From the IMG/VR virus record IMGVR_UViG_3300024264_002047: a stretch of DNA of 64,000 bases, one strand, 5' to 3'. The DNA is from a virus. The notes beneath the pieces were generated by a model. The model worked only from the letters and a program-made list of their open reading frames with translations. It ran no database searches and was not told the origin of the DNA. Shown here piece by piece: positions 7,769 through 30,782 of the stretch. Numbering within the stretch: position 1 is the first letter of the stretch; each line of letters opens with the position of its first letter. A program made the translations under genes and the position numbers.

Positions 7769-8473
7769 ATGGAACAGAAAAACTTAAACTTAAATTTACT
7801 TACCGAAGGACTACCCTTAACAGATGTCCAAACATTATATCATGAGTTCTTTTATAGAAAAGATTACCAGTGGTGGCGTGATGTTGAGCCAGGTGATATC
7901 GTTGTTGATATTGGTGCTTGTGTTGGGTTCTTTGTTTGTCATGCTCTTGATCGCAACGCTGGCAGGATCATTGCTGTCGAACCTTCGAGGCCTCATCTCA
8001 AAACTCTAATACGAAATATATCAGACTACTTTATTGATCATGGTAAGGTTCCTGTCTTGCCTATCGAAGCAGGTATTGGTTCAACCGCAAATCATTTCGC
8101 AAATGTATTCTCAGAACATAAAGATTACAGAAAGATGTCATTCTTGGATCTTGTCGTTGATTACGATATACCACATATTGATTATTTAAAAATTGATTGT
8201 GAAGGTGGTGAATATGGTATCTTTACAGAAATGAATATTCCTTATCTCAAAAACAATGTAAAACATATTGCCGTAGAGTTTCATATGAACGCATATAGTG
8301 GTTGTGTTAAGCAGTGGCAAAAGTTCCGTGATGGATTACTCAGACAGTTCGATGTTAATCAAGTACGGTTCCTTGAACACGAGGACAGAGAGAAAGCCTA
8401 TAACGATGATTTTCTAAACGAAGGAAACTTTAAAGATTGGAGTTCCTTTATGTTGTTTATTACCAATTCTTAA
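7769..8473 (+). CDS. FkbM-family SAM methyltransferase
   Basis: VVDIGACVG, AVEP, LKIDCEGGE. Confidence 0.85.
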   Translation: MEQKNLNLNLLTEGLPLTDVQTLYHEFFYRKDYQWWRDVEPGDIVVDIGACVGFFVCHALDRNAGRIIAVEPSRPHLKTLIRNISDYFIDHGKVPVLPIEAGIGSTANHFANVFSEHKDYRKMSFLDLVVDYDIPHIDYLKIDCEGGEYGIFTEMNIPYLKNNVKHIAVEFHMNAYSGCVKQWQKFRDGLLRQFDVNQVRFLEHEDREKAYNDDFLNEGNFKDWSSFMLFITNS

Positions 8474-9155
8474 TATAGAGCATAAACGTATAAGGTACCT
8501 TTTCTTTCCAATCATCAGCCCATAGGTTCTCACCTAACGCCGTATCTTTAAAAAGTAACTTATCTTTTACTTCAACTAAAAACGAATCTCTCCACCGTTC
8601 AAATACTTTGTGCGAATTATATCTATTACCTAAAGTAACTCTTACTGCTGCAAATTTTACGTGACCAGTAAATAACCATAACAGATCTTTATTCAATATA
8701 TTACATTCAGCACCAATTGCATCTACTCGTAAGTAATCTATAATAGGAATCTCAAATCCCTTTATGAGTTCTTGTAGATTTAAAACTTGTGGTTCAGATT
8801 CTGCTCGATATAATGGATTCTGATACATGCCCGATGAATCAATATCTTTTCCTATCGTTGCGCATATAGGATATACTCTACTATAAGGAGGGATGTCAAT
8901 CATATGATCTGAACAGTTGTGTATAGCTGCTCGTAGGATTCTACGATTAGGTTCAACCATATAAAGTTTACTTGCACCAGCTTCTAATGCTTTCTTGGCA
9001 AACATACCGTTTCCAGCACCGATGTCTAAAACTACGTCGGATGGTTGTATTTCATACCACCAATCGTAATCATATTGCTTGTAGATCTGATGCCACATTG
9101 TGCCGATTTCTTCCGGTGTCATACCGGCGTAATCGAAGTGATTGTTTAATTCCAT
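8460..9155 (-). CDS. FkbM-family SAM methyltransferase (paralogue, convergent)
   Basis: VLDIGAGNG, MVEP, LRVDAIGAE; start probably ATG 9155 rather than 9236. Confidence 0.8.
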   Translation of the reverse strand: MELNNHFDYAGMTPEEIGTMWHQIYKQYDYDWWYEIQPSDVVLDIGAGNGMFAKKALEAGASKLYMVEPNRRILRAAIHNCSDHMIDIPPYSRVYPICATIGKDIDSSGMYQNPLYRAESEPQVLNLQELIKGFEIPIIDYLRVDAIGAECNILNKDLLWLFTGHVKFAAVRVTLGNRYNSHKVFERWRDSFLVEVKDKLLFKDTALGENLWADDWKEKVPYTFMLYIKNW

Positions 9156-9199
9156 AACTAATTCCAAACAGATAAATAAATAGTATATACCAATACAGT

Positions 9200-9207
9200 T
9201 ATTTATA
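9200..9207 (-). promoter_or_regulatory. T4-type late promoter TATAAATA
   Basis: Exact consensus about 45 nt upstream of the minus-strand FkbM gene. Confidence 0.65.
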
Positions 9208-9216
9208 GGAATTGAG

Positions 9217-9711
9217 ATGGCAGAAATTATTAACAACTACTTATCACCGACAAACTTCACGGTTAATGTTCAGCGCATACCTAACATTGAGTTCTTTGTG
9301 CAGAAACTTTCTATCCCAAGTTTATCAGCAACACCGTCTGCGCGAGATACTCCGCTCAATGTACTATATGACATCAACGATAAATTGACTTATGCTGATT
9401 TAGAGATGACGTTTATCATCGATGAGAATATGAATAACTATAAAGAGATACTTGATTGGTTAGAAGGTATTAGTGGATCTACATCTACTAATCAAAATAA
9501 ACAATTGGGGCTATCAAAGTACGGTTTTAAATCTGACATTATCGCAACCATCACAAACTCCCACAAGAACCCAAACACAAGATTTATATTTAGAGACTGT
9601 TTTCCTACAGGATTAGGATCAGTTGAACTCGATGTAAATGTTCAAGACGTTTCTTACGCCACTTGTTCAGTCACAATGAGATACGATATTTTTACAATGG
9701 AACAATTATAG
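9217..9711 (+). CDS. 3: Tail tube terminator/completion protein gp3-like
   Basis: NYLSPTNF, FIIDENMNNY.EI..W, FRDCFPT; gp3-uvsY-uvsW-55 synteny. Confidence 0.8.
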   Translation: MAEIINNYLSPTNFTVNVQRIPNIEFFVQKLSIPSLSATPSARDTPLNVLYDINDKLTYADLEMTFIIDENMNNYKEILDWLEGISGSTSTNQNKQLGLSKYGFKSDIIATITNSHKNPNTRFIFRDCFPTGLGSVELDVNVQDVSYATCSVTMRYDIFTMEQL

Positions 9712-9724
9712 GATAAACTTTATT

Positions 9725-10330
9725 ATGAATTATGATTTTATTGAAGTAGGAACTTCTGATTTTGAAACACATATCCAAAACGCTCGAGACGAAACAGTTG
9801 GTTTATCTATTGAACCAATACAGTATTATTTAGATCGCCTTCCAAACAAAGAGAATGTTGAGAAACTCAATTGCGCAGTTTCTTTTGATGGGAAGCCGGG
9901 TCGAGATAAAGTATACTATATACCCCATGAAACAATTATAAGACAAGGCATTCCACATTGGATTCGTGGTTGTAATTCTATGGGTGACTATCACTATCAA
10001 CACAAAGTAAGAAATCTTCAAGAGTTCGTTGAAACAATTGAAGTTGATGTAATACCTTTACGTGATATCTTTGAGCATCATAATGTTGAACAACTTAAAA
10101 CATTAAAATTAGATACTGAAGGTGGAGATTCTTATATCTTACAATCATTCATTCCTTTCCTAAAAGACAGGTTAAAAGAAAACTATCCACAGACGATTGA
10201 ATTTGAGACCAACATATTAACACCAGCAGAAGTTGTTAATGAGACAATAGAGTTATATGTTGAGCTTGGTTATAGAGTTGCTCAGCGCGGTGTAGGAGAA
10301 CAAAATACTATATTGGCTATTGACATTTAG
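9725..10330 (+). CDS. Divergent FkbM-like methyltransferase
   Basis: FIEVGTSDF, SIEP, LKLDTEGGD. Confidence 0.7.
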   Translation: MNYDFIEVGTSDFETHIQNARDETVGLSIEPIQYYLDRLPNKENVEKLNCAVSFDGKPGRDKVYYIPHETIIRQGIPHWIRGCNSMGDYHYQHKVRNLQEFVETIEVDVIPLRDIFEHHNVEQLKTLKLDTEGGDSYILQSFIPFLKDRLKENYPQTIEFETNILTPAEVVNETIELYVELGYRVAQRGVGEQNTILAIDI

Positions 10331-20343: not shown

Positions 20344-20372
20344 TTGACATTTATATTAAAGTGTGGTATAAT
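20344..20372 (+). promoter_or_regulatory. Sigma70-type promoter
   Basis: TTGACA-N17-TATAAT. Confidence 0.85.
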
Positions 20373-20683: not shown

Positions 20684-20895
20684 TAGAGATATACGGAAAA
20701 GACAACTGCGCATATTGTAATATGGCAAAACAACTTTGTGAGTCCAAAGGATTGGACTTCGTATACAAATCCTTGGATGTTGATTACAAACAAGATGAAT
20801 TTTTTGAAAAGTTTCCAACCGCAAGAACCTTTCCACAGATTATAATGGAAGGTGAAGCAATTGGTGGATTTAATGAATTACGGGATAAATTATGA
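20680..20895 (+). CDS. Glutaredoxin
   Basis: CAYC, TFPQI, IGGF. Confidence 0.9.
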   Translation: MIEIYGKDNCAYCNMAKQLCESKGLDFVYKSLDVDYKQDEFFEKFPTARTFPQIIMEGEAIGGFNELRDKL

Positions 20896-21305
20896 GTAAG
20901 GATTGGGTAAAAGACATTGTTGACATGCAGTCAAAATATAAAACACACAACTGGGTAGCAAACGCAGATGTGGAAAAGTTGAAAGCGTTTTTGGAATTTA
21001 GAGTTAACTTCCTACAAGAAGAACTCGAGGAAACAAGAACAGCTCAAAAAGATATCGACTCCGAAGAAATTGTAGATGGTTTAGTTGACCTTTGTGTAGT
21101 GGCAATCGGTACTCTTGATGCCTTCGGAGTCGATCCTTATAAAGCTTGGGACGCAGTTCTCGAAGCAAACATGGCCAAAGAACCTGGAGTAAAGGAAGGA
21201 CGGCCAAACCCACTAGGATTACCTGACTTGATGAAACCTGAAGGATGGACGGCTCCATCTCATGAAGGCAATCATGGTATCCTACCAAAACTTAAAGGAG
21301 AGTAA
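20892..21305 (+). CDS. MazG-like (PRA-PH-type) NTP pyrophosphohydrolase
   Basis: QEELEE...EIVDGLVDL, ANMAK, KPEGW. Confidence 0.8.
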   Translation: MSKDWVKDIVDMQSKYKTHNWVANADVEKLKAFLEFRVNFLQEELEETRTAQKDIDSEEIVDGLVDLCVVAIGTLDAFGVDPYKAWDAVLEANMAKEPGVKEGRPNPLGLPDLMKPEGWTAPSHEGNHGILPKLKGE

Positions 21306-21306
21306 A

Positions 21307-21534
21307 ATGGCAATTAGAGAAATATTAGTTAATGCGTTAGTTTCAAGGTATGAAGCAGCCATTGCAGAACATACAGCAAACATTGCGGTATTTTTAGAGA
21401 ATGGAGTTGGAGTAGCAGAACATCCTGGTACAGTTGAAACTCTTGATGCTGAAGTCGCAAAACTTGCCGAAGCCGAAGATAAATTGGCAACAGTAAGAAC
21501 GTTTCTATTACCAGTTCCGCCAAAAGTTGTATAA
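21307..21534 (+). CDS. Conserved hypothetical protein (GVAEHP)
   Basis: AAGGAG RBS before ATG 21307. Confidence 0.7.
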   Translation: MAIREILVNALVSRYEAAIAEHTANIAVFLENGVGVAEHPGTVETLDAEVAKLAEAEDKLATVRTFLLPVPPKVV

Positions 21535-21615
21535 ATTATTGATTTTGTTAGTAGTTCTTGTATATATAAATTTATATGTTACATTACTGTAACATGTAGG
21601 CAACAGGAAAGAAAC

Positions 21616-21702
21616 ATGACATACATAGCAAAACAATACAAAAAGTTCCATCATATGATGAAAAGGAACAGAATTCAGAACGTTTGGAGAAAAGTTCTCT
21701 AA
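21616..21702 (+). CDS. Possible 28 aa basic peptide
   Basis: AGGAAAG RBS, MTYIAKQYKKFHHMMKRNRIQNVWRKVL. Confidence 0.4.
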   Translation: MTYIAKQYKKFHHMMKRNRIQNVWRKVL

Positions 21703-21719
21703 ATATCTGAAATAAACCA

Positions 21720-21748
21720 TTGACATTCTTTATGATATAGATTATAAT
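21720..21748 (+). promoter_or_regulatory. Sigma70-type promoter
   Basis: TTGACA-N17-TATAAT. Confidence 0.85.
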
Positions 21749-21780
21749 TGTTCTATAAATTAAATTAATGGACTTACATT

Positions 21781-22326
21781 ATGGCATATTATGAAAAGGT
21801 CAACACAAACCTTAAATTGAAACTGATGGCAGACTGCGTTGTTGAAAATCACCCAGTCTATAAAGAAAGTCCTTTCCGTGAGGCTGTTCTACAACGGCCT
21901 GCGGATTTTAACCTAGAACATTTAATAGAACAATCGTTCGCTCTCTGCTCAAATGGTCTATACGAATTCAACGACGGTATCCACGAAGACTTCACAGATG
22001 AATCTGAATCCAAAACGGGTACATTACACATATCGGCCAAGAGCAGTTCAGCCGAACTCTCAAGCGTAAGATCTCATGACGGTGTCTTAAAGAAAGGTGC
22101 TATCCGAGCGGTTGTTGTTAACCCTGACACAGAAAAATTACATTACTTCTTTATACCAAAAGCTGTTGTAAAAACTATGATGACAACAAAGGAAGGCAAA
22201 CCAAAAGTTAATCGTTCTTTATGGATTCGTTACAATAGTAAGAAAAAACTATTTACATCTGTAGAAAAGTATGGTATAATAGAACATAACAATTTAAAAG
22301 ACGTTGCTATGGAAAAAAACCGATGA
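21781..22326 (+). CDS. Hypothetical protein, possible PD-(D/E)xK nuclease
   Basis: E..IE, EDFTDESESKT pattern; has its own promoter. Confidence 0.5.
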   Translation: MAYYEKVNTNLKLKLMADCVVENHPVYKESPFREAVLQRPADFNLEHLIEQSFALCSNGLYEFNDGIHEDFTDESESKTGTLHISAKSSSAELSSVRSHDGVLKKGAIRAVVVNPDTEKLHYFFIPKAVVKTMMTTKEGKPKVNRSLWIRYNSKKKLFTSVEKYGIIEHNNLKDVAMEKNR

Positions 22327-22342
22327 GTATACGAAGTTTCCA

Positions 22343-22371
22343 TTGACATTATCAAGAATCTTTGATATAAT
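22343..22371 (+). promoter_or_regulatory. Sigma70-type promoter
   Basis: TTGACA-N17-TATAAT. Confidence 0.85.
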
Positions 22372-22394
22372 ATATTTTTTATTATGGAGTCTAT

Positions 22395-22739
22395 ATGACA
22401 AAACCAACCAACCCAGTTTCGGTCGATGTACTACAAGAGTGCGTTGACCTTCAATTGAAAAAGTCGAGAGATTATCAAAATCCAAACTCGACTGTTCAAC
22501 AAGCTGACTACTATCCTAACGGAATTACAACCATTCATGATATTATGCATGCAAAAATGCTACGTATGAAATCAGTAATGGAAGCAATGCAGTCAGATGA
22601 TTACGATCCTAACTTTGAGTCCCTTGAAGATTCAGCAAAAGATTTAATTAACTATTCAAGTTTCTTTGTCTCTTACTGTCGTCAAGGTATTACAGGTCAG
22701 GATTCAACTAAAGATGTATTTAACAGGAGTACTAAATAA
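22395..22739 (+). CDS. DUF1599-like (nucleotide-modification-associated) helical protein
   Basis: KKSRDY...KMLRMKS...ESLEDSAKDLINY pattern. Confidence 0.6.
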   Translation: MTKPTNPVSVDVLQECVDLQLKKSRDYQNPNSTVQQADYYPNGITTIHDIMHAKMLRMKSVMEAMQSDDYDPNFESLEDSAKDLINYSSFFVSYCRQGITGQDSTKDVFNRSTK

Positions 22740-22993
22740 TGAGCAATGTGATATTACCGTCAAGTGACGAAGACAAAAAACGAATCCGTGGTTGCATGGA
22801 AGAAATGAGTAATTCTTTTACAAGAATGGAAGGCGAACGTGATTTTCAGAAAGAAGCAATCAATGCTTTGGCTGACGAAGTTCAGATCCCAAAATCAATC
22901 CTAAGGAAAACCGCAAGAGCTTTCCATAATCAAAATGTTTCTGATCTAATTGCAGAAGTATCTGATATTGAAGCGTTAATGGAATCTATCTAA
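22739..22993 (+). CDS. dsbA: T4 DsbA-like dsDNA-binding protein
   Basis: 84 aa helical, EMSNS...QKEAI...LRKTARAFH. Confidence 0.65.
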   Translation: MSNVILPSSDEDKKRIRGCMEEMSNSFTRMEGERDFQKEAINALADEVQIPKSILRKTARAFHNQNVSDLIAEVSDIEALMESI

Positions 22994-23661
22994 TGAAACA
23001 AGTCCAAGACATTCGTAACATCATTATGAACAAGTATCTCTGTGAAGATTTTACTGTTGATCGTACTGGTGCAAAAACTATCGAAGTCTTTGGTGAATCG
23101 TTTCTTGCCGATGAAGACTACGTAATTCGTAAACCTGCATATAAGTATATTGAACGTGAACTAGATTGGTACATGTCTGAATCATTATATGTTGATGATA
23201 TTCCTGGTGATACACCACAGATTTGGAAAGACATATCTTCTGACGAAGGTAAGATCAATTCTAATTATGGTTGGTGTATTTACTCTGAAGAGAATGGTCA
23301 TCAGTATAAACATGTACTTCGAGAGTTGAGAAATAATCCAAACAGCCGACGTGCTTCAATGATTTATAATCGACCAAGTATGCATACTGATTTCAACCGC
23401 GACGGTATGAATGACTTTATGTGTACCTTTAGTAATACGTTTATGATTCGTGATGGCAAACTTATTTCCCATTATGTAATGAGATCTAACGATGCAGTCT
23501 TTGGTTATAACAATGATTATGCTTGGGCAAAGTTTGTTCAAGGACAACTTGCTTATGATCTTGAAGTTGAAGTCGGTGATCTTATTTGGACTGCTACTAA
23601 CTTTCATGTTTACGAAAGACACTTCGACCAAGTTGAGGCATTAGTGAATGCAGGATCCTAA
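22993..23661 (+). CDS. 42: dCMP hydroxymethylase-like enzyme (thymidylate synthase fold, T4 gp42-like)
   Basis: ELDWY, INSNYGW, SRRA, DFMCT, MRSND..FGYNNDYAW, HVYERHF; Asp at the cytosine-specificity position. Confidence 0.88.
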   Translation: MKQVQDIRNIIMNKYLCEDFTVDRTGAKTIEVFGESFLADEDYVIRKPAYKYIERELDWYMSESLYVDDIPGDTPQIWKDISSDEGKINSNYGWCIYSEENGHQYKHVLRELRNNPNSRRASMIYNRPSMHTDFNRDGMNDFMCTFSNTFMIRDGKLISHYVMRSNDAVFGYNNDYAWAKFVQGQLAYDLEVEVGDLIWTATNFHVYERHFDQVEALVNAGS

Positions 23662-24094
23662 ATGGGATAAACGTTTTATGAACGTTGCTCGAGAGATCTC
23701 TACATGGAGTAAAGATCCTTCAAAACAAATAGGTGCGGTGGCAGTTAACTCTGACCGTCGTATCCTAGCAACTGGTTATAATGGATTCCCAAAAGGAATT
23801 GACGATACACCAGAACGTTATGAAAATCGAGAGCTTAAATATAGTTTGGTCGTACATGCCGAAATGAATTGCATATATAATGCTACCTTTAATGGTATTT
23901 CGTTAAAAGATGCAACTCTATATGTTTGGGGATTACCAGTTTGCTCTGATTGTGCAAAGGGAATTATCCAGGTTGGCATAAATAGAATTGTAATGGCAAC
24001 AAGTGATGTACCAGAGAAATGGTCAGAGTCATTTGAAAAATCAAGAAACATGTTTTCAGAAGCTAATGTTGAAATTAGTAACATTTACTATTGA
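23648..24094 (+). CDS. cd: dCMP deaminase
   Basis: GYNG, HAE, PVCSDC. Confidence 0.9.
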   Translation: MQDPKWDKRFMNVAREISTWSKDPSKQIGAVAVNSDRRILATGYNGFPKGIDDTPERYENRELKYSLVVHAEMNCIYNATFNGISLKDATLYVWGLPVCSDCAKGIIQVGINRIVMATSDVPEKWSESFEKSRNMFSEANVEISNIYY

Positions 24095-24119
24095 CAACCA
24101 CTTGATAATTTGTTATAAT
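24091..24119 (+). promoter_or_regulatory. Sigma70-type promoter
   Basis: TTGACA-N17-TATAAT. Confidence 0.85.
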
Positions 24120-24146
24120 AGAATTATTATTTTAAAAGGATATATT

Positions 24147-24350
24147 ATGAAAGAAAAATTGAAAGACCTTGGAATGGGATTGGCAGTAATACTAGGAATT
24201 GCATTTTCTGTATACGCAGCTATTTCTTTATTAGAACTTGTTAATATGACATCTGACCAAATCAGACTTGCATTAGCAACTCCATTCTTTATTTACTTCT
24301 GCTACCTCTTCGGTGGTTTAACAAGATCTATGCTAAATAGAAGTAATTAA
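24147..24350 (+). CDS. Two-TM membrane protein
   Basis: AAGGA RBS before ATG 24147; two hydrophobic helices. Confidence 0.65.
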   Translation: MKEKLKDLGMGLAVILGIAFSVYAAISLLELVNMTSDQIRLALATPFFIYFCYLFGGLTRSMLNRSN

Positions 24351-24351
24351 T

Positions 24352-25392
24352 ATGTCTCTACATAAACGCATAGTACTTGACTTTGACGATACACTCGCAT
24401 ACACATCAGATCGAGATTGGGCAAACGCAACGCCTAATCTTGGTCTGATAGAAAAGTGTAATAAACTATACGAAGCTGGTTGGATTATTGATATCTTTAC
24501 AGCTCGTGGTTCTATTTCCTGTAGGAGTAGAGTTGAAGCATCAGAAAAGTACGGTCCTCAGATCGAAGAATGGTTAAACAAACATCATGTAAAATATCAT
24601 GCTCTATCTTTTGATAAACCACTTGCAGCATACTATGTTGACGACAAAGGTATTACTCCTGAAGATTTTATAGAAACAGATATAAGAGAACTCGAAGGTG
24701 GTCTCTCAGGTTCTGATATCTATACTGATGGTAAGGTAGTACATAAGACAGCAAGAAATGCCCATGAGGCAGCAAAGTGGTTCAAAGATACTGGTGATAT
24801 TGTAAACACTCCAACGATTCATAGAGTTGTAGGTAATACACTTACAATGGATTATATTGAAAACGATCCAAACTATTTTACAGACAGTCCTTATAAAGCA
24901 TTGGCAATGATTCAAGAATCTCTTGATGCTTTTGATTCTATTAAACAAACTAAGTTTCTAACCTTTGATGATTACATCGCAAGAATAGTAAGTCATGTTC
25001 AATTGGCAGACCTTGAACCATTTAATGATGTGATTGAGAAATTAGCAACAATTGAATTAGAATACGGATATTGTCATGGAGATTTTGGTGTTAAGAACAT
25101 GCTGTTTAATGAAGACAAATTGTTCTTAATTGATCCTATCCCTAACGTATTTGGTTGTCGTGAACTTGACATAGCAAAGTTTATCGCAAGTTTAATGATT
25201 AACCGTTACAGTTCTTCAGAACAAGATCTTGCTATTGATACACTGTTGGCTTATAATAAGTATATAGACAAGTATGACTTACTTACGCTTGTTGCTGCTG
25301 AAATTATTCGTGTATATAAGTACCATGGAGACAAAGATTTTATCATTCAGTTAGTTGACGACGTAATGGATATGGTTGAATATGCAGGCTAA
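24352..25392 (+). CDS. HAD phosphatase fused to APH/choline-kinase-like domain
   Basis: N-terminal DFDDT, TARG, KP..YYVDDK; C-terminal GGLSGS, HGDF..N, LIDP. Confidence 0.82.
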   Translation: MSLHKRIVLDFDDTLAYTSDRDWANATPNLGLIEKCNKLYEAGWIIDIFTARGSISCRSRVEASEKYGPQIEEWLNKHHVKYHALSFDKPLAAYYVDDKGITPEDFIETDIRELEGGLSGSDIYTDGKVVHKTARNAHEAAKWFKDTGDIVNTPTIHRVVGNTLTMDYIENDPNYFTDSPYKALAMIQESLDAFDSIKQTKFLTFDDYIARIVSHVQLADLEPFNDVIEKLATIELEYGYCHGDFGVKNMLFNEDKLFLIDPIPNVFGCRELDIAKFIASLMINRYSSSEQDLAIDTLLAYNKYIDKYDLLTLVAAEIIRVYKYHGDKDFIIQLVDDVMDMVEYAG

Positions 25393-26305
25393 TAATATAT
25401 TTATAGTAAGCAATAAAATCTCAAGGATTGAAAACCTTCTTGAGATGTATAATGTATACGACGAAGATACATATATGAATTTGCATGTTATCTTAGATGA
25501 TCGGAATTGTACATATAACGTAGAAAGTATATCAGATAAGATAACAATTCACTATGCAACTGATGTGATTGCTAAAGTAAAACATTTCTTTGATGAAGAG
25601 TGGTTGTTACGAATACTTGATGTATATGGAGTGGCAATCAAATGGTTGGTCTTTCCTTATGTACATGAAATATTAAACATCAACAGAGCAATGATGATTG
25701 ATGACGATACGTTATTACTCAAGCCTGTTGACCACTATTTCTTTGAACCTTATGTATTCTATAACGAATCTGCATTAGGTATTATGGGTAAGTTTGTAGA
25801 AGTAGTACTTGATCCAATTTATAAGGATAAGGTTGATATTACTACAATGAGAACCAAACCTTATTTTAGTATGAATTCTGGTCAGGTTGTACATACAAGA
25901 AACGATCATTATCTTGAGTTCTTTAAAAGAGCAGCTTGTAAAGATATGTATGTTCTTATTATGGAAGGTGTACACAAGTATAAAAACAAAAAAGGTTATG
26001 GTGGTTCTGTTATACCAAAGTATGGAACTCCAGGTAATAACCGATCTATGGGTGGAAAGTTTTGGTGTATAGAACAAAACATATATGCAATTTATTATAG
26101 ATGGTTATCAGAGAATGGATTTGAGGTAAGTAGGTTTGGTAGTGACGTACGTATTTGGACTACGGTTCTAAAACTCGACGCAGTGTTAAATTTTAAAACC
26201 TTCCCTGCATATATACATTATCTACCAACTGATAAAACACCACTCTATACGGTGTATGCTAAACGAGTTAAAGAAATTTTGAGGGAAGAAAATGTTTCTA
26301 GATAG
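25382..26305 (+). CDS. Putative GT-A fold glycosyltransferase
   Basis: MMIDDD metal motif, NSG, EQ, H pattern like GT8/GT34. Confidence 0.55.
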   Translation: MQANNIFIVSNKISRIENLLEMYNVYDEDTYMNLHVILDDRNCTYNVESISDKITIHYATDVIAKVKHFFDEEWLLRILDVYGVAIKWLVFPYVHEILNINRAMMIDDDTLLLKPVDHYFFEPYVFYNESALGIMGKFVEVVLDPIYKDKVDITTMRTKPYFSMNSGQVVHTRNDHYLEFFKRAACKDMYVLIMEGVHKYKNKKGYGGSVIPKYGTPGNNRSMGGKFWCIEQNIYAIYYRWLSENGFEVSRFGSDVRIWTTVLKLDAVLNFKTFPAYIHYLPTDKTPLYTVYAKRVKEILREENVSR

Positions 26306-26726
26306 GAAAAAATTACCGGCAGATTGTAAGGTCGGATTTACATGTTCAACGTTTGATCTGTTTCATGCAGGTCATATTGTAATGCTACAAGAAGCAAAGA
26401 CGTTGTGTGATTATTTAATTGTTGGATTATTGATTGACCCAACCGTGGATCGTCCTGATGCAAAGAACGCACCAGTTCAGACTCCATTTGAAAGATACAT
26501 ACAGTTATCTTCTTGTAAATATGTAGACGAGGTAATACCTTTCTCAACTGAACAAGAATTGGTTGATATGATTTTAACTATCAATCCTGATATTAGAATT
26601 GTTGGTGAAGAATACAAAGATGTTGAGCATACTGGAAAAGGTTTATGTCCTGTTCATTATAATCGTAGAAGGCATTCTTTCAGTTCGTCAGAGCTCAGAC
26701 AACGTGTGGTCAATTCGGATAAATAA
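26292..26726 (+). CDS. Glycerol-3-phosphate cytidylyltransferase (TagD)-like
   Basis: TFDLFHAGH, YVDEVIP, RRHSFSSSELR. Confidence 0.88.
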   Translation: MFLDRKKLPADCKVGFTCSTFDLFHAGHIVMLQEAKTLCDYLIVGLLIDPTVDRPDAKNAPVQTPFERYIQLSSCKYVDEVIPFSTEQELVDMILTINPDIRIVGEEYKDVEHTGKGLCPVHYNRRRHSFSSSELRQRVVNSDK

Positions 26727-26753
26727 ATTTAACAGAACGGCAAACTTTATATT

Positions 26754-27995
26754 ATGAAAAACATTGGATTTGGAAAGATCGGTAAATCGGTCAAGTTTAA
26801 GCGGAATCGCTTCTCTCCTATTGGTGGAGACAACGAGCCGTCTACAGTACTTATTGCACTCGCAAATAATAACCCAGACAAAACATTTTACATTATCGGA
26901 CGATCTGATTTCAGTACTCTAAATGAGTCTGAATCATTGGAGTTGTTTCCCTTTGATAATGTAATTGATATTTGGAAAGGTATTAAAAACAAAGACGAAG
27001 ATAGATTCTTTAATCACGTAATTGATTACTTTAAGAGTAGGTCAATGAAATTAGACTATACTGTTTTAATGGTTGGTCAAGTTGGTACTGTTACCATTCC
27101 AGGTAAAATTGAACAAGTTAAAGATCGTACGCTTAAAGCTTCTGTGATTGATATGACAAAGAATTATACATCACCAATTGCGATTTGGATTAACGAAGAG
27201 AATCCTGATTATGTTGAGATTGTAAACGATCCTCGGTATGTCATGAATCAATCAAGAGACATATTCAATCTACCAAATATATCTTTAGGTCAATACGATT
27301 ACGAATATAAAGTAAGTAGTATTAAATCTTACGAAGAACAAGATCGTTACGACAGATCAATGCCTTCAACATATGCAGGAATGGAAACTTGTTTCTGTAT
27401 TAACTATCAACACACTGAACAGTTCAATTTAAATCGTAATGTTCCTTTCATGGTTATTCTCAATGAAGCAAAGCCTTCAAGATATAATTTATTAAAGGAC
27501 TGGGTATTAGATGAACATGACGATGTTGAGATCTACGGTAAATGGGAACATCCTAATACCGAAACAGACGCAAGGTTCAAAGGATCTATTCATCTTGATG
27601 ATGTAATGGCTAAAATGAACAATGTTAAATTTACTTTTATTATTCCAATCGCAAAAGGTTGGGTAACTTCAAAGTATATTGAAATGGTACATGCTGGTGT
27701 GATACCGTTCTTGCATCCATCTTATGATGAACAAGGGCATTTGCCAATACCAGAATTTTTAAGACCAAAGACTCCTGCTGAATTTAAAGAAAGGATGGAT
27801 AGGTTATTAAATAACGAACAGGAATATGAATCGGTAATTACAGGACTGCGTAAACTATTATGCAAACCTGAATATTACGATGGAACATTCTTAAACAATA
27901 AAATTATGACAGCGATTGATAATGATTATGTTGCCCCCAATGTAATGGAATTTGATAAGAAAGTAGCTGCAACACTTGAGGACTTTTTCGGATGA
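26754..27995 (+). CDS. Putative GT-B DNA glycosyltransferase (beta-glucosyltransferase-like)
   Basis: NDPRY, IYGKW, KFTFIIP, TSKYIEM...PF...YD recall T4 BGT; context; C-terminal LEDFFG. Confidence 0.65.
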   Translation: MKNIGFGKIGKSVKFKRNRFSPIGGDNEPSTVLIALANNNPDKTFYIIGRSDFSTLNESESLELFPFDNVIDIWKGIKNKDEDRFFNHVIDYFKSRSMKLDYTVLMVGQVGTVTIPGKIEQVKDRTLKASVIDMTKNYTSPIAIWINEENPDYVEIVNDPRYVMNQSRDIFNLPNISLGQYDYEYKVSSIKSYEEQDRYDRSMPSTYAGMETCFCINYQHTEQFNLNRNVPFMVILNEAKPSRYNLLKDWVLDEHDDVEIYGKWEHPNTETDARFKGSIHLDDVMAKMNNVKFTFIIPIAKGWVTSKYIEMVHAGVIPFLHPSYDEQGHLPIPEFLRPKTPAEFKERMDRLLNNEQEYESVITGLRKLLCKPEYYDGTFLNNKIMTAIDNDYVAPNVMEFDKKVAATLEDFFG

Positions 27996-29218
27996 ACAAG
28001 AAAGAAATAACATGGGCTCCACTTATTCCACTTATCGGTGGACAAATGCTAGGCGCAGAAAAGGCGTTTGGTAAACCACCTGAAGCAATCTACTCTTATG
28101 GTGGATTTGAGGATAACGATAGTCATTATGTAAACTATCAACAAAATACAAAAGGACGTGATATTCCTTATATTAAACTTGATGAAGCAGAGCCTGGTCA
28201 AATCAAACAGGTTGATGTTGTTTCTGGTACTCCACCTTGTGCTGCATTATCTCAATTGAATACAGGAACAACCGGAGAGAGTAAAGGTGCAGGTTGTGCT
28301 AAGAACGAATTTATGTATATGGTCTTTCAAGATGGTATTGATAAACTTGGTGCAAAGGTAGTCATCGTTGAGAATGCTCCTGCATTGTTTACAAATAAAG
28401 GACGTCCTGTAGCGAATCGACTGTACGAAATTTGCGCTGAGAGAGGTTATTCTTTGTCCCTATATAAAACATCGACGAGATTCCACGGAGTTCCACAGGG
28501 ACGCGACAGGACTTTCGCGATTGGTTGGAAGTCAGAGTCCGCTCCTGTAATGAACTGGTATAATAAAGATAGAAAAGATTTTAAAGAATACCTTCAAGAG
28601 ATTCCAGTTGATGCGTTACATCAGGATTTGATTATTAATAAACATGTACCTGACGAACCGTATTACAATTTCATCAAGACAAAGACTAACAGAGAAGTTA
28701 GAGAGTTGATGGTTGAAGAGAATGTTAAGACAACTCTGAATTACGTTTGTAAGAAAGGTTGGATGAAAGAAGCTAACGAATGGTTCCATAAGACAGGCAA
28801 TGAGAAAGGTATTAAATATTCCGACCACGCAATTATGAAGTTTGCTGATGGCAAAGGTGTATGGGATGGTTCAGTACATGTCTTTGGTGAATATATGAAT
28901 GCAGTGATTGGTCGTAATATGGTTGACACGATGCATCCAACAGAAGAACGATCCTTAACGATTAGAGAAGCATTACACCTAATGGGCTTTCCTGAAGACT
29001 TTGAGTTGTTACATGGTTTAAAGAAAATGAATCATATTGCTCAAAACGTTCCTGTACCAACATCAAGGGATTTACATACAGAGATTGGCAAGTTTCTAAC
29101 AGGCAAGTTAGATTTATCAGATACTACTTATTTGAGACAGAACAATCATAAACAATTAATGGAGCTTGATCCTAACGGCGTAGATACAACTCCAAATTTA
29201 TCTGAATTCTTTGGATAA
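27992..29218 (+). CDS. C5-cytosine methyltransferase homologue with altered SAM-binding motifs
   Basis: PPC (IV), ENAP (VI), PQGRDR (VIII), RSLTIREA..MGFP (IX); motif I is IPLIGG. Confidence 0.85.
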   Translation: MNKKEITWAPLIPLIGGQMLGAEKAFGKPPEAIYSYGGFEDNDSHYVNYQQNTKGRDIPYIKLDEAEPGQIKQVDVVSGTPPCAALSQLNTGTTGESKGAGCAKNEFMYMVFQDGIDKLGAKVVIVENAPALFTNKGRPVANRLYEICAERGYSLSLYKTSTRFHGVPQGRDRTFAIGWKSESAPVMNWYNKDRKDFKEYLQEIPVDALHQDLIINKHVPDEPYYNFIKTKTNREVRELMVEENVKTTLNYVCKKGWMKEANEWFHKTGNEKGIKYSDHAIMKFADGKGVWDGSVHVFGEYMNAVIGRNMVDTMHPTEERSLTIREALHLMGFPEDFELLHGLKKMNHIAQNVPVPTSRDLHTEIGKFLTGKLDLSDTTYLRQNNHKQLMELDPNGVDTTPNLSEFFG

Positions 29219-29223
29219 AACTA

Positions 29224-29252
29224 TTGACATGACTAGTAAAGTTTGTTATAAT
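29224..29252 (+). promoter_or_regulatory. Sigma70-type promoter
   Basis: TTGACA-N17-TATAAT. Confidence 0.85.
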
Positions 29253-29277
29253 AGTATATTAAATTAAAGGTAAACAT

Positions 29278-29916
29278 ATGAGAAACGATTTAATTATCGA
29301 CTTCGAGACAATGGGACAAGATGTTCATAACTGTGCAGTCATTGATGTATCTGTAATGGTATTTCAGTGGGACAAGTTTACATCAAATGATCCTTACAAT
29401 CTGAGTGATGTATTCAAGGCAAAGAAATTTAAATTGGATGTAGCAGAACAAGTAAAGAACTATGGTTGGGTAGTCGATAAAGGCACTCTCGACTTTTGGT
29501 CAAAACAAGATTCAGAAGTAAGAAAGAATATTGCTCCTAAAAGTTCAGACCTATCGGTTGAAGACTTTGTGAAACAGTTTACTGACTTTTTAATTGACGG
29601 ACCAAAGATTGATTATTGGTGGTCAAGATCTAATTCATTCGACCCAGTAATATTAGAAAGACTATTTAAGTCTCAAAATAAAATCGGTCATCTACAAAAC
29701 AAACTAAAGCATTGGACAGTTAGAGATACAAGAACATTCATTGATGCAAAGTTTGATTTCGGTTTAAAGAAGAACGGATTCCCTCCTTGTGCAAACGAAG
29801 AAAAGTGGGATTCTGTTTTTAAAGCACACGATTCTGCATGGGACATATTGGCTGATGTATTAAGATTACAGTCAATCACCAGAGCAGAAAATGATATGGA
29901 GCAAATTACAGTATGA
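29278..29916 (+). CDS. dexA: DEDDh 3'-5' exonuclease (DexA-like)
   Basis: IDFET, FD, RDTRT, HDSAWD. Confidence 0.82.
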   Translation: MRNDLIIDFETMGQDVHNCAVIDVSVMVFQWDKFTSNDPYNLSDVFKAKKFKLDVAEQVKNYGWVVDKGTLDFWSKQDSEVRKNIAPKSSDLSVEDFVKQFTDFLIDGPKIDYWWSRSNSFDPVILERLFKSQNKIGHLQNKLKHWTVRDTRTFIDAKFDFGLKKNGFPPCANEEKWDSVFKAHDSAWDILADVLRLQSITRAENDMEQITV

Positions 29917-30782
29917 AGCTAGAAGTTAAGACAGAAGATTTACAAAAACAACGGTTGTTCGTTGGCACACCAATGTATGGTGGTCAATGTACTGGTTTAT
30001 ATACCAAGTCAACTAATGATCTGAGCATGTTAGCATCTACTCATAAAATTCCACTGAAGTACTACTTTCTATTCAATGAGAGTCTAATTCAAAGAGCAAG
30101 GAATTATATTGTAGATGAGTTCCTAAGATCAGACTGCACGCACTTATTGTTTATTGATGCTGATATTGGATTTGATCCAAGAGACGCGTTAGCATTACTT
30201 GCGTTACAAGTTTCAGATCCAGAAAAATATGATATCGTCTGTGGACCATATCCTAAAAAGACAATTGCATGGGAAAAGGTTTCTATCGCTGCTCAACAAG
30301 GCAACGGTAAAGATAATCCATTTGACTTAGAAAAATTTACATCAGATTTTGTTTTCAATCCGGTTAGCGGAACGAAATCATTTAAACTCTCGGAACCTGT
30401 TGAAGTTGCAGAAGGCGGTACTGGGTTTATGTTAATTACAAGAGAGGCGTTAGAGAAATATCGTGACACCTATCCTGAATTTGCATATAAACCAGATCAC
30501 GTTAGAACAGAACAATTTGACGGTACTCGAGATATTCATGCTTTCTTCGACTGTGTCATCGACCCAGAAACAAGAAGGTACTTGTCTGAAGATTACTTCT
30601 TCTGTAAGATGGCTCGCAAAGCTGACCTTTCAGTATGGATGTGTCCTTGGATGAAACTTAACCATGTTGGGTCATATATCTTTAAAGGTGATATGGGAAG
30701 TCTAGGCCAATTAGGTGTTACAGCAACTGCTGATAACAAATCTAATAAGAAATCTTACAATCCTATTGACAAAGCCAAGTAA
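29913..30782 (+). CDS. GT-A fold glycosyltransferase-like protein
   Basis: TPMYGG, SLIQRARN, LFIDADIGF, GTGFMLI, SEDYFFC. Confidence 0.75.
   Translation: MKLEVKTEDLQKQRLFVGTPMYGGQCTGLYTKSTNDLSMLASTHKIPLKYYFLFNESLIQRARNYIVDEFLRSDCTHLLFIDADIGFDPRDALALLALQVSDPEKYDIVCGPYPKKTIAWEKVSIAAQQGNGKDNPFDLEKFTSDFVFNPVSGTKSFKLSEPVEVAEGGTGFMLITREALEKYRDTYPEFAYKPDHVRTEQFDGTRDIHAFFDCVIDPETRRYLSEDYFFCKMARKADLSVWMCPWMKLNHVGSYIFKGDMGSLGQLGVTATADNKSNKKSYNPIDKAK

Follow-up and report, generated by a model that had tools for sequence, protein, structure and literature searches.

A predicted sugar-activation kit joined to T4-style hydroxymethylcytosine synthesis in a T4-like phage genome segment

What does a phage that appears to replace its cytosines attach to the substitute base, and does it make the activated sugar itself? 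The question is raised by a block of genes at positions 20892-30782 of a 64,000-nucleotide stretch of IMG/VR virus record IMGVR_UViG_3300024264_002047 (the whole stretch being termed the window hereafter). Genes flanking the block (gp46, gp47, gp43, gp45, gp44, a topoisomerase and baseplate genes) mark the window as a piece of a T4-like myovirus genome. The phage is probably marine, because its nearest relatives are uncultured IMG/VR contigs (54 loci) and homologues also occur in the Tara and GOS sets. By analogy with a reconstituted system, contig 53 of Pyle et al. (bioRxiv 10.1101/2023.12.21.572611), we read the block as a heptosylation kit of that style joined to T4-style synthesis of 5-hydroxymethylcytosine (hmC). 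We regard it as highly probable that the DNA is glycosylated with a phage-activated sugar, and we favour heptosyl-hmC as the product with more modest confidence. What is new is the coupling to gp42, the exchangeability of donor and transferase modules, and a homologue of methylases whose cofactor motifs are altered and which tracks gp42.

All eleven open reading frames (ORFs) named in the original prediction are intact and lie on the plus strand, as do all features of the block described below, and their labels survive searches of Pfam, PHROG, NCBIfam, PDB (Protein Data Bank) and predicted folds. The proposal that they form one contiguous block serving one pathway does not survive, since perfect promoters cut the block into several units. 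Such TTGACA-N17-TATAAT promoters are present in the block region at 20344, 21720, 22343, 24091, 29224 and 30766, and the whole window has 16 perfect TTGACA/TATAAT sites, every one with a 17-bp spacer, where about 0.14 would be expected by hand arithmetic. The sigma70-type promoter at 22343-22371 serves the genes for DUF1599, DsbA, gp42 and dCMP deaminase. The promoter at 24091-24119 heads a sugar-modification operon (24148-29218) whose genes, with mostly overlapping ends, encode in order a small membrane protein, a HAD-kinase, a GT-A-type glycosyltransferase (GT), a nucleotidyltransferase, a GT-B-type GT and the methylase homologue. The next perfect promoter, at 29224-29252, opens a separate unit of dexA and a second, 289-aa GT-A. 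The small membrane ORF, DsbA, a 75-aa ORF and a 181-aa orphan are additions to the list of genes originally drawn up.

The base would be made much as in T4. The gp42-type dCMP hydroxymethylase (22993-23661) belongs to the thymidylate synthase (TS) family (3e-24) and matches T4 gp42 (PDB 1b49) with an E value of 3.5e-69. Its residues C144 (C146 of the reference numbering), D141 (L143D), D167 (D169, kept) and D175 (N177D) are invariant in 18 diverse aligned sequences. According to Lee et al. (PMC13326640), N177D directs such enzymes to dCMP, an acidic residue at the L143 position gives a non-methyl product, and D169N gives a hydroxylase. Because D169 is kept together with L143D and N177D, the predicted product is hydroxymethyl-dCMP (hm-dCMP) rather than hydroxy-dCMP. 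Thus, of the two bases originally put forward, hmC is retained as a predicted, pre-replication product, whereas hydroxy-C, which would call for a 5-hydroxy-dCMP synthase of the RB69 gp48 type, is rejected because D167 is present in 18/18 sequences where D169N would be needed. Nearby genes might adjust the nucleotide pools. These are an all-alpha NTP pyrophosphatase of the MazG/PRA-PH type (20892-21305; PF01503 E 1.6e-9; phrog_671), a predicted dCTP sanitiser in the role of gp56 that is present in 74/217 loci, mostly adjoining gp43, and a dCMP deaminase (23648-24094; PF00383 E 9.6e-21) with intact HAE and PxCxxC motifs. No orthologue of gp56 or gp1 was identified within the window.

Two genes of the operon appear to supply the donor. 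The HAD phosphatase and APH-like kinase fusion (24352-25392; TIGR01689 1.2e-15; profile matches to PDB 9iqw and 1xpj) has DxD, T, K, DD and HGDFxxN/DP motifs that are conserved in 26 sequences, and is predicted to convert a sugar phosphate to a sugar-1-phosphate. The HxGH nucleotidyltransferase (26292-26726; PF01467 9.4e-15; phrog_7878) is the predicted nucleoside diphosphate (NDP)-sugar synthase. Its earlier description as a TagD-like cytidylyltransferase was right as to the RfaE-II/TagD superfamily, but the heptose-1-phosphate adenylyltransferase model TIGR02199 (RfaE domain II / HldE domain II) scores 74.8 bits against a cut-off of 181.5, compared with 51.1 against 165 for the TagD model TIGR01518. 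The top NCBIfam and PHROG matches are both heptose-1-phosphate adenylyltransferases. With this kit in hand, the suggestion that the phage builds its own activated donor is supported as a prediction.

The transferase that would use this donor is a 413-aa GT-B (26754-27995; predicted local distance difference test score, pLDDT, 91.2). Foldseek, one of the checks proposed at the outset, returns T4 beta-glucosyltransferase (BGT) for all three of the best PDB matches to its predicted fold (E 5.7e-8, about 10% identity), and the placement is one of fold, given that its profile had no match to PDB sequences at E<=1. We predict that it is the primary DNA glycosyltransferase. Its C-terminus is equally suggestive: gp43 in the window ends in TIEDFFS, the GT-B in TLEDFFG and the methylase homologue in NLSEFFG, and the latter two have the LDFLF-like C-terminal motif of proteins that bind the sliding clamp gp45. 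In T4, LDFLF is the motif by which gp43 and ligase bind gp45 (PMC6212786), and the alpha-GT, not the beta-GT, co-purifies with gp45 (PMC13216743). A strict form of the tail pattern, fixed after the tails had been seen and counted in related, non-independent loci, is found in 46/46 gp43 proteins, 71/79 GT-B proteins, 29/30 of the alternative alpha-glucosyltransferase (AGT)-like transferases and 72/91 methylase homologues, with a background of 5/1201 ORFs. It occurs in none of the nucleotidyltransferases, HAD-kinases or gp42 proteins, in 0/21 of the first type of GT-A and in 0/54 of the 289-aa type; a looser version, which also matched DsbA and some gp42 proteins, was set aside for the counts. 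The GT-B and the methylase homologue are therefore likely to bind gp45. Because they share the clamp-binding tail of the polymerase, DNA is the probable target, and the earlier suggestion that a BGT-like enzyme acts on DNA is supported by both fold and tail.

The first GT-A of the operon (307 aa, 25382-26305; DDD motif; pLDDT 86.5), a lead from the Atlas, is placed by Foldseek in the GT8/GT24 group, with matches to UGGT, XXYLT1 and glycogenin at E 1e-6 to 1e-5 and a TM score of about 0.4. The gene is optional (17/39 loci), and slots like it are also filled by a TAGT or another GT-B. By analogy with the GT8-like second enzymes that extend the glycan in Pyle et al., we predict that it is a chain extender, so the multi-step glycosylation originally envisaged is possible. 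In one cluster (P0255), the N-terminal half of this protein (95% identical) is joined to a SIS sugar-isomerase domain; we rejected this fusion as a probable assembly chimera, since it is known from one cluster and a single 1.3-kb contig.

Which sugar would be attached? E. coli makes ADP-heptose itself. In the E. coli reconstitution of Pyle et al., contig 53 (subclass III) encodes a bifunctional enzyme with HAD-like and APH-like parts, a protein of the cytidylyltransferase family and a GT-B resembling BGT, whose structural matches are to T4 BGT (E 1e-5 to 1e-7). None of the three enzymes could be dispensed with for formation of the 449-u mono-heptose and 641-u di-heptose products on hmC made by TET. 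Since the host's own ADP-heptose was not enough, the donor made by the phage probably has another nucleotide or is another isomer. The statement that no chemistry had been determined for such a combination must consequently be withdrawn: a trio of the same architecture makes heptosyl and di-heptosyl derivatives, and a related kinase, HAD and nucleotidyltransferase route to UDP-arabinose is described by Lee et al. Moreover, gp42-linked versions were foreseen in bulk, because Pyle et al. tie GT-B clusters more often to TS homologues. Our literature search, whose coverage stopped short of subscription papers, found no characterised gp42-linked heptose pathway.

The gene-neighbourhood survey of IMG/VR proposed at the outset indicates how often these genes travel together. 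It comprised 216 loci, reduced to 96 distinct full-length primary GT sequences with the window and four GenBank loci excluded, and its counts are non-independent, the loci being related phages picked as best matches. Within the GT-B family of the window (n=70), the HAD-kinase and HxGH kit recurs in 39 loci, 27 instead have an AfhE-like NTP-transferase-kinase (PF00483), usually accompanied by a separate HAD, and none has both. Because the two kits never occur together with the same GT-B family, they look interchangeable as makers of NDP-sugars. A second, alpha-GT-like transferase (PF11440) is accompanied by the window's kit in 26/26 loci, a count that is circular because these loci were found through the kit. 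Of the 29 loci with 6 kb of upstream sequence, 28 have a gp42 orthologue in that interval, and the methylase homologue is present in 53/53 and 20/21 loci having 3 kb downstream. The arrangement also reaches cultured phages. Agathobaculum phage AB434P2 has the HAD-kinase (29%), the transferase (50%), a GT-B belonging to this family (profile E 7e-25) and a TS homologue with L143D/N177D, with no PF00145 gene, and XG4 and Planchet combine the AfhE-like kit with the window's GT-B family. XG4 carries the methylase homologue as well.

From the genes, motifs, folds, promoters, tails and co-occurrence reported here, we infer each reaction of the following scheme, in which the block would armour the phage DNA in the manner of T4, as well as the identity of the sugar. 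The gp42 orthologue would make hydroxymethyl-dCMP, while control of the dCTP and dTTP pools would fall to the MazG-like enzyme and the deaminase. The kinase domain would phosphorylate C1 of a host sugar phosphate, likely one of seven carbons, the HAD domain would strip the distal phosphate, and the HxGH enzyme would then add a nucleotide to give the NDP-sugar. This order of steps follows the Afh route of Lee et al. and the ADP-heptose route. The BGT-fold GT-B, likely riding the sliding clamp, would sugar-coat hmC in new phage DNA to give, most likely, heptosyl- and di-heptosyl-hmC, and in some strains the optional GT8-like enzyme would lengthen the sugar chain.

Several observations weigh against this scheme. 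The evidence comes from part of a genome, and the likeness to contig 53 is one of architecture. The nucleotidyltransferase matches no NCBIfam model at cut-off, and its best single-sequence PDB matches are the cytidylyltransferases ECT and TagD. A GmhA-type isomerase was found in 0/4 complete relatives, 0/5 relatives overall and 0/1 nearest record (34% complete), so a C7 precursor must be host-derived. The same trio is present in AB434P2, which has a Gram-positive host, and heptose of the lipopolysaccharide (LPS) type is not expected in such a host. Only 1/5 relatives had a dNMP kinase of the T4 gp1 type. The tail pattern was defined post hoc, as noted, and T4 beta-GT, the fold relative of the GT-B, does not bind gp45 (PMC13216743).

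The rival that survives best keeps the DNA pathway but changes the sugar, such that the sugar of the phage-made NDP-sugar would be not manno-heptose but a pentose (arabinose, for example), a ketoheptose or an isomeric hexose. We judge this unlikely, though it has several observations in its favour. Phosphatases of the arabinose pathway in RB69-type phages are homologues of the HAD domain (for DLP3 gp81 and RB69 gp51, Lee et al. give 1xpj as the top structural match), but no arabinose-5-phosphate isomerase was found beside the kit. The GT-B family occurs with the AfhE-like kit in 27/70 loci, no isomerase is present in the four complete relatives, and kits occur in phages of Gram-positive hosts; against these stand the top family matches, which are to heptose enzymes. 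Finally, heptose was the product of the sole trio tested so far that combines this fusion with an HxGH transferase (Pyle et al.), although C7 isomers are indistinguishable by the 449-u mass.

Much less probable is the version first proposed, in which a TagD-like enzyme makes a CDP-polyol and the GT-B moves the polyol-phosphate onto hmC. Single-sequence search of the PDB does place TagD structures (1coz and 2b7l) among its best matches, but the TagD model scores below RfaE-II. Likewise, teichoic-acid polymerases have the GT-B fold, but none is among the 42 Foldseek matches listed for the window's GT-B. In addition, the interchangeable kit has a PF00483 sugar nucleotidyltransferase, and a kinase and phosphatase pair would make a sugar-1-phosphate, a step superfluous for glycerol-3-phosphate. 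Least probable of all is that the sugar genes modify a host surface polysaccharide or virion protein and leave plain hmC in the DNA, for although cyanophages such as P-SSM2 carry HAD and heptose genes in LPS-like clusters and neither GT-A has a clamp tail, the best fold match of the GT-B is a DNA glucosyltransferase, it has the tail of the polymerase, and it adjoins gp42 across unrelated phage lineages.

If hmC replaces cytosine and is then glycosylated, why do phages expected to have no free cytosine retain a methylase homologue beside gp42? The gene in the window (27992-29218; PF00145 6.2e-27) encodes a C5-cytosine-methyltransferase (C5-MTase) homologue with a clamp-binding-type tail. Canonical C5-MTases have FxGxG as motif I and GN[AS]V as motif X. 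The window's protein has neither, carrying IPLIGG and IAQNVP at these places, and among 92 distinct family members motif I is [PS]L[IV]GG in 92/92 and GN[AS]V is found in 0/92, while PC (90/92), ENAP (92/92) and QxRxR (92/92) persist. Loci were fetched by the methylase homologue alone, to avoid selecting for sugar genes, and the viral scan used the more distant clade; an estimated 1,500 or so IMG/VR stretches have the homologue, and the best 80 of 581 were kept together with 18 contigs binned into metagenome-assembled genomes (MAGs). Where these loci extend 5 kb upstream, they include gp42 in 26/27 viral (from the best 80 of 581) and 11/12 MAG-binned cases, a donor-kit gene is present in 3/27 viral cases, and the sugar genes vary widely. 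The methylase homologue therefore follows cytosine-modifying synthases, not the heptose kit, and is a general partner of hmC phages. A part in donor synthesis was rejected. Nor is the homologue needed for the predicted sugar step, being absent from AB434P2 and Planchet, and its original inclusion as a pathway component is not upheld.

The single likeliest role for this protein, which we hold with a confidence a little short of even, would be clamp-coupled methylation of cytosines that escape replacement. A more doubtful proposal is that it is no S-adenosylmethionine (AdoMet) methylase, and that its Cys-C6 adduct serves to remove, exchange or derivatise hydroxymethyl groups on hmC in newly made DNA. 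The uniform alteration of motif I and loss of GN[AS]V while PC, ENAP and QxRxR persist fits this proposal, but altered motifs could still bind AdoMet. Fully substituted DNA leaves no cytosine to methylate, and gp42 accompanies the homologue in both sets of loci whatever the sugar kit. Canonical C5-MTases dehydroxymethylate hmC without AdoMet as a side reaction (PMC11347137). Phage G and S-TIM61 pair the homologue with an N177D TS homologue, but the family member is the sole PF00145 match in S-TIM61, and 30/30 Atlas matches are PF00145 clusters. Also in favour of methylation, the DNA of S-TIM5 is reported to have 5-methylcytosine after purines, though a literature search did not turn up the data. 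The boldest extension, which we think unlikely, is that the homologue heads a large, clamp-tethered, AdoMet-free family that strips or replaces hydroxymethyl groups at chosen sites, patterning a genome-wide heptose-oligosaccharide coat, which extension by the GT8-like enzyme would turn into a glycan new to DNA.

Two further phages with this homologue deserve separate mention. In S-TIM61, the protein annotated as ThyA (L004:5757-6593), 2.4 kb from the methylase homologue, has N177D and a Cys at the L143 position, as one would expect if it were a dCMP methylase and not a dTMP synthase. The cultured jumbo Bacillus phage G (L238, NC_023719 212000-236000) has a methylase homologue (gp301, E 6e-37), two alpha-GT-like genes, an NTP-transferase, a HAD, the kinase-like gp311, a deaminase and an L143D/N177D TS. 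We predict that it has glycosylated hmC; no data on modification of its DNA were among the matches listed in a literature search.

The block has further genes besides these. The DUF1599/Nmad1-like protein (22395-22739) has a weak, below cut-off match to PF07659 (E 0.025) and a match to phrog_18404 (1.3e-13), and its slot is filled by PF18909 in many relatives. It is followed by the overlooked DsbA-like dsDNA-binding protein (22739-22993; PF11126, phrog_639). The 181-aa orphan (21781-22326), with its own perfect promoter at 21720, has no Pfam, PHROG or NCBIfam match, and occupies a variable slot outside the pathway; it is present in 7/217 loci, and unrelated ORFs take its place in relatives. 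The DexA-like 3'-5' exonuclease (29278-29916; PF16473 1e-19, phrog_255) is a backbone gene. The 289-aa GT-A (29913-30782; RARN, DAD and EDY motifs; phrog_1574 2.8e-58) is a lineage-core gene before gp45, being 50-54% identical to the gene just upstream of gp45 in Cr30 and phiM12. These two phages have no gp42 orthologue, their best gp42 match being a weak TS (E 1e-6 to 1e-7). Because its homologues precede gp45 in phages without gp42, we treat this GT-A as backbone, and both proteins, which have their own promoter and had been counted in the pathway, were rejected as cassette members and assigned to the replication backbone. By analogy, the 289-aa GT-A may still have a role on DNA, as its motifs resemble the one that Pyle et al. 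give for DNA GT-As. In Stenotrophomonas phage DLP_6 (L237:6236-9144), the interval from gp46 to the homologue of this GT-A contains a 287-aa ORF, TAGT-like by eye, with a tail of the clamp type, as well as an AfhE-like NTP-transferase-kinase.

Other loci hint at further chemistries. One (L291:3056-8004) has, between gp42/deaminase and the methylase homologue, a myo-inositol-1-phosphate synthase (PF01658 E 2e-7), a protein with a 5-hmdU-kinase helical domain (PF18723 E 3e-9) and a 344-aa protein, the latter two with clamp-type tails. About 16 more methylase-picked loci have a similar run, judged by ORF length alone. This kit suggests inositol-related hypermodification of hmC and may be more novel than our main finding. 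In a further locus, which has the AfhE-like kit, a KdsA/DAHP-synthetase-I gene (L058:112-687; PF00793 E 5e-37) sits immediately upstream of gp42, a hint that the donor there may be related to Kdo. The Enterococcus siphophage Planchet (L003:5266-11794; also 9183 and TJE4) has a kinase, an N177D TS, a HAD, an AfhE-like fusion annotated as 'glycosyltransferase', a GT-B akin to that of the window (31%) and one more GT; the Planchet paper mentions neither glycosyltransferase, hydroxymethyl nor DNA modification. Elsewhere in the window, three FkbM-type methyltransferase genes lie within 7769-10330 (7769-8473 facing 8460-9236, and a third at 9725-10330), and a phosphomannomutase-like HAD at 425-1132; these are possible sugar-methylating or surface genes.

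If our preferred scheme of gp42-coupled heptosylation is correct, then heptose sits on essentially every cytosine in an abundant group of T4-like phages from the sea, which would extend a modification so far known from a reconstitution in E. coli alone, where TET made the hmC. Such phages should resist glucose-specific type IV enzymes and be poorly recovered in standard virome libraries. The mix-and-match layout of two donor kits, two primary transferases and three optional extenders offers a set of systems in which to look for new DNA glycans, and the related kits of cultured phages (AB434P2, XG4, Planchet/9183 and phage G) make these predictions testable now.

Comparison with known systems places the locus at the junction of several. 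The methylase homologue shares motifs IV, VI, VIII and IX and the catalytic Cys with PF00145 enzymes such as M.HhaI, M.HaeIII and the TET-linked phage C5-MTs of Burke et al. (PMC8256090), but differs in its altered motifs I and X, its clamp-type tail and its linkage to gp42 rather than TET. With T4, the window shares the gp42 active site, the BGT fold and the prospect of clamp-coupled glycosylation, as described for alpha-GT (PMC13216743); T4 in contrast relies on host UDP-glucose and has no donor kit, and its BGT is only about 10% identical to the window's GT-B. The arabinosyl-5-hydroxycytosine systems of RB69, DLP3 and HY126, as described by Lee et al., resemble the window in placing a TS homologue, kinase, HAD, nucleotidyltransferase and GT-B near gp43 and in having a homologous HAD. 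Relative to the Afh genes of RB69 and HY126, the window keeps D169, fuses its kinase to the HAD rather than to the transferase, uses an HxGH transferase and has no arabinose-5-phosphate isomerase nearby; the Afh layout of nucleotidyltransferase-kinase fusion, separate HAD and isomerase is absent from the window, and an AfhE-like layout was seen only in relatives. Contig 53 is closest, having the HAD-APH fusion, a CTP_transf-like nucleotidyltransferase and a GT-B of BGT architecture, and the window's GT8-like extender resembles GT14I/GT43I of the same preprint. The window differs from it in the inserted GT-A and in the altered motifs of its methylase homologue. There is no TET gene in the cluster, which has gp42 instead, and a Tet_JBP search run without a positive control found 0/5 among relatives. 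Contig 53 forms hmC after replication, through a C5-MT and TET at GpC sites, whereas gp42 in the window would act before replication, so that the predicted sugar coat would be genome-wide.

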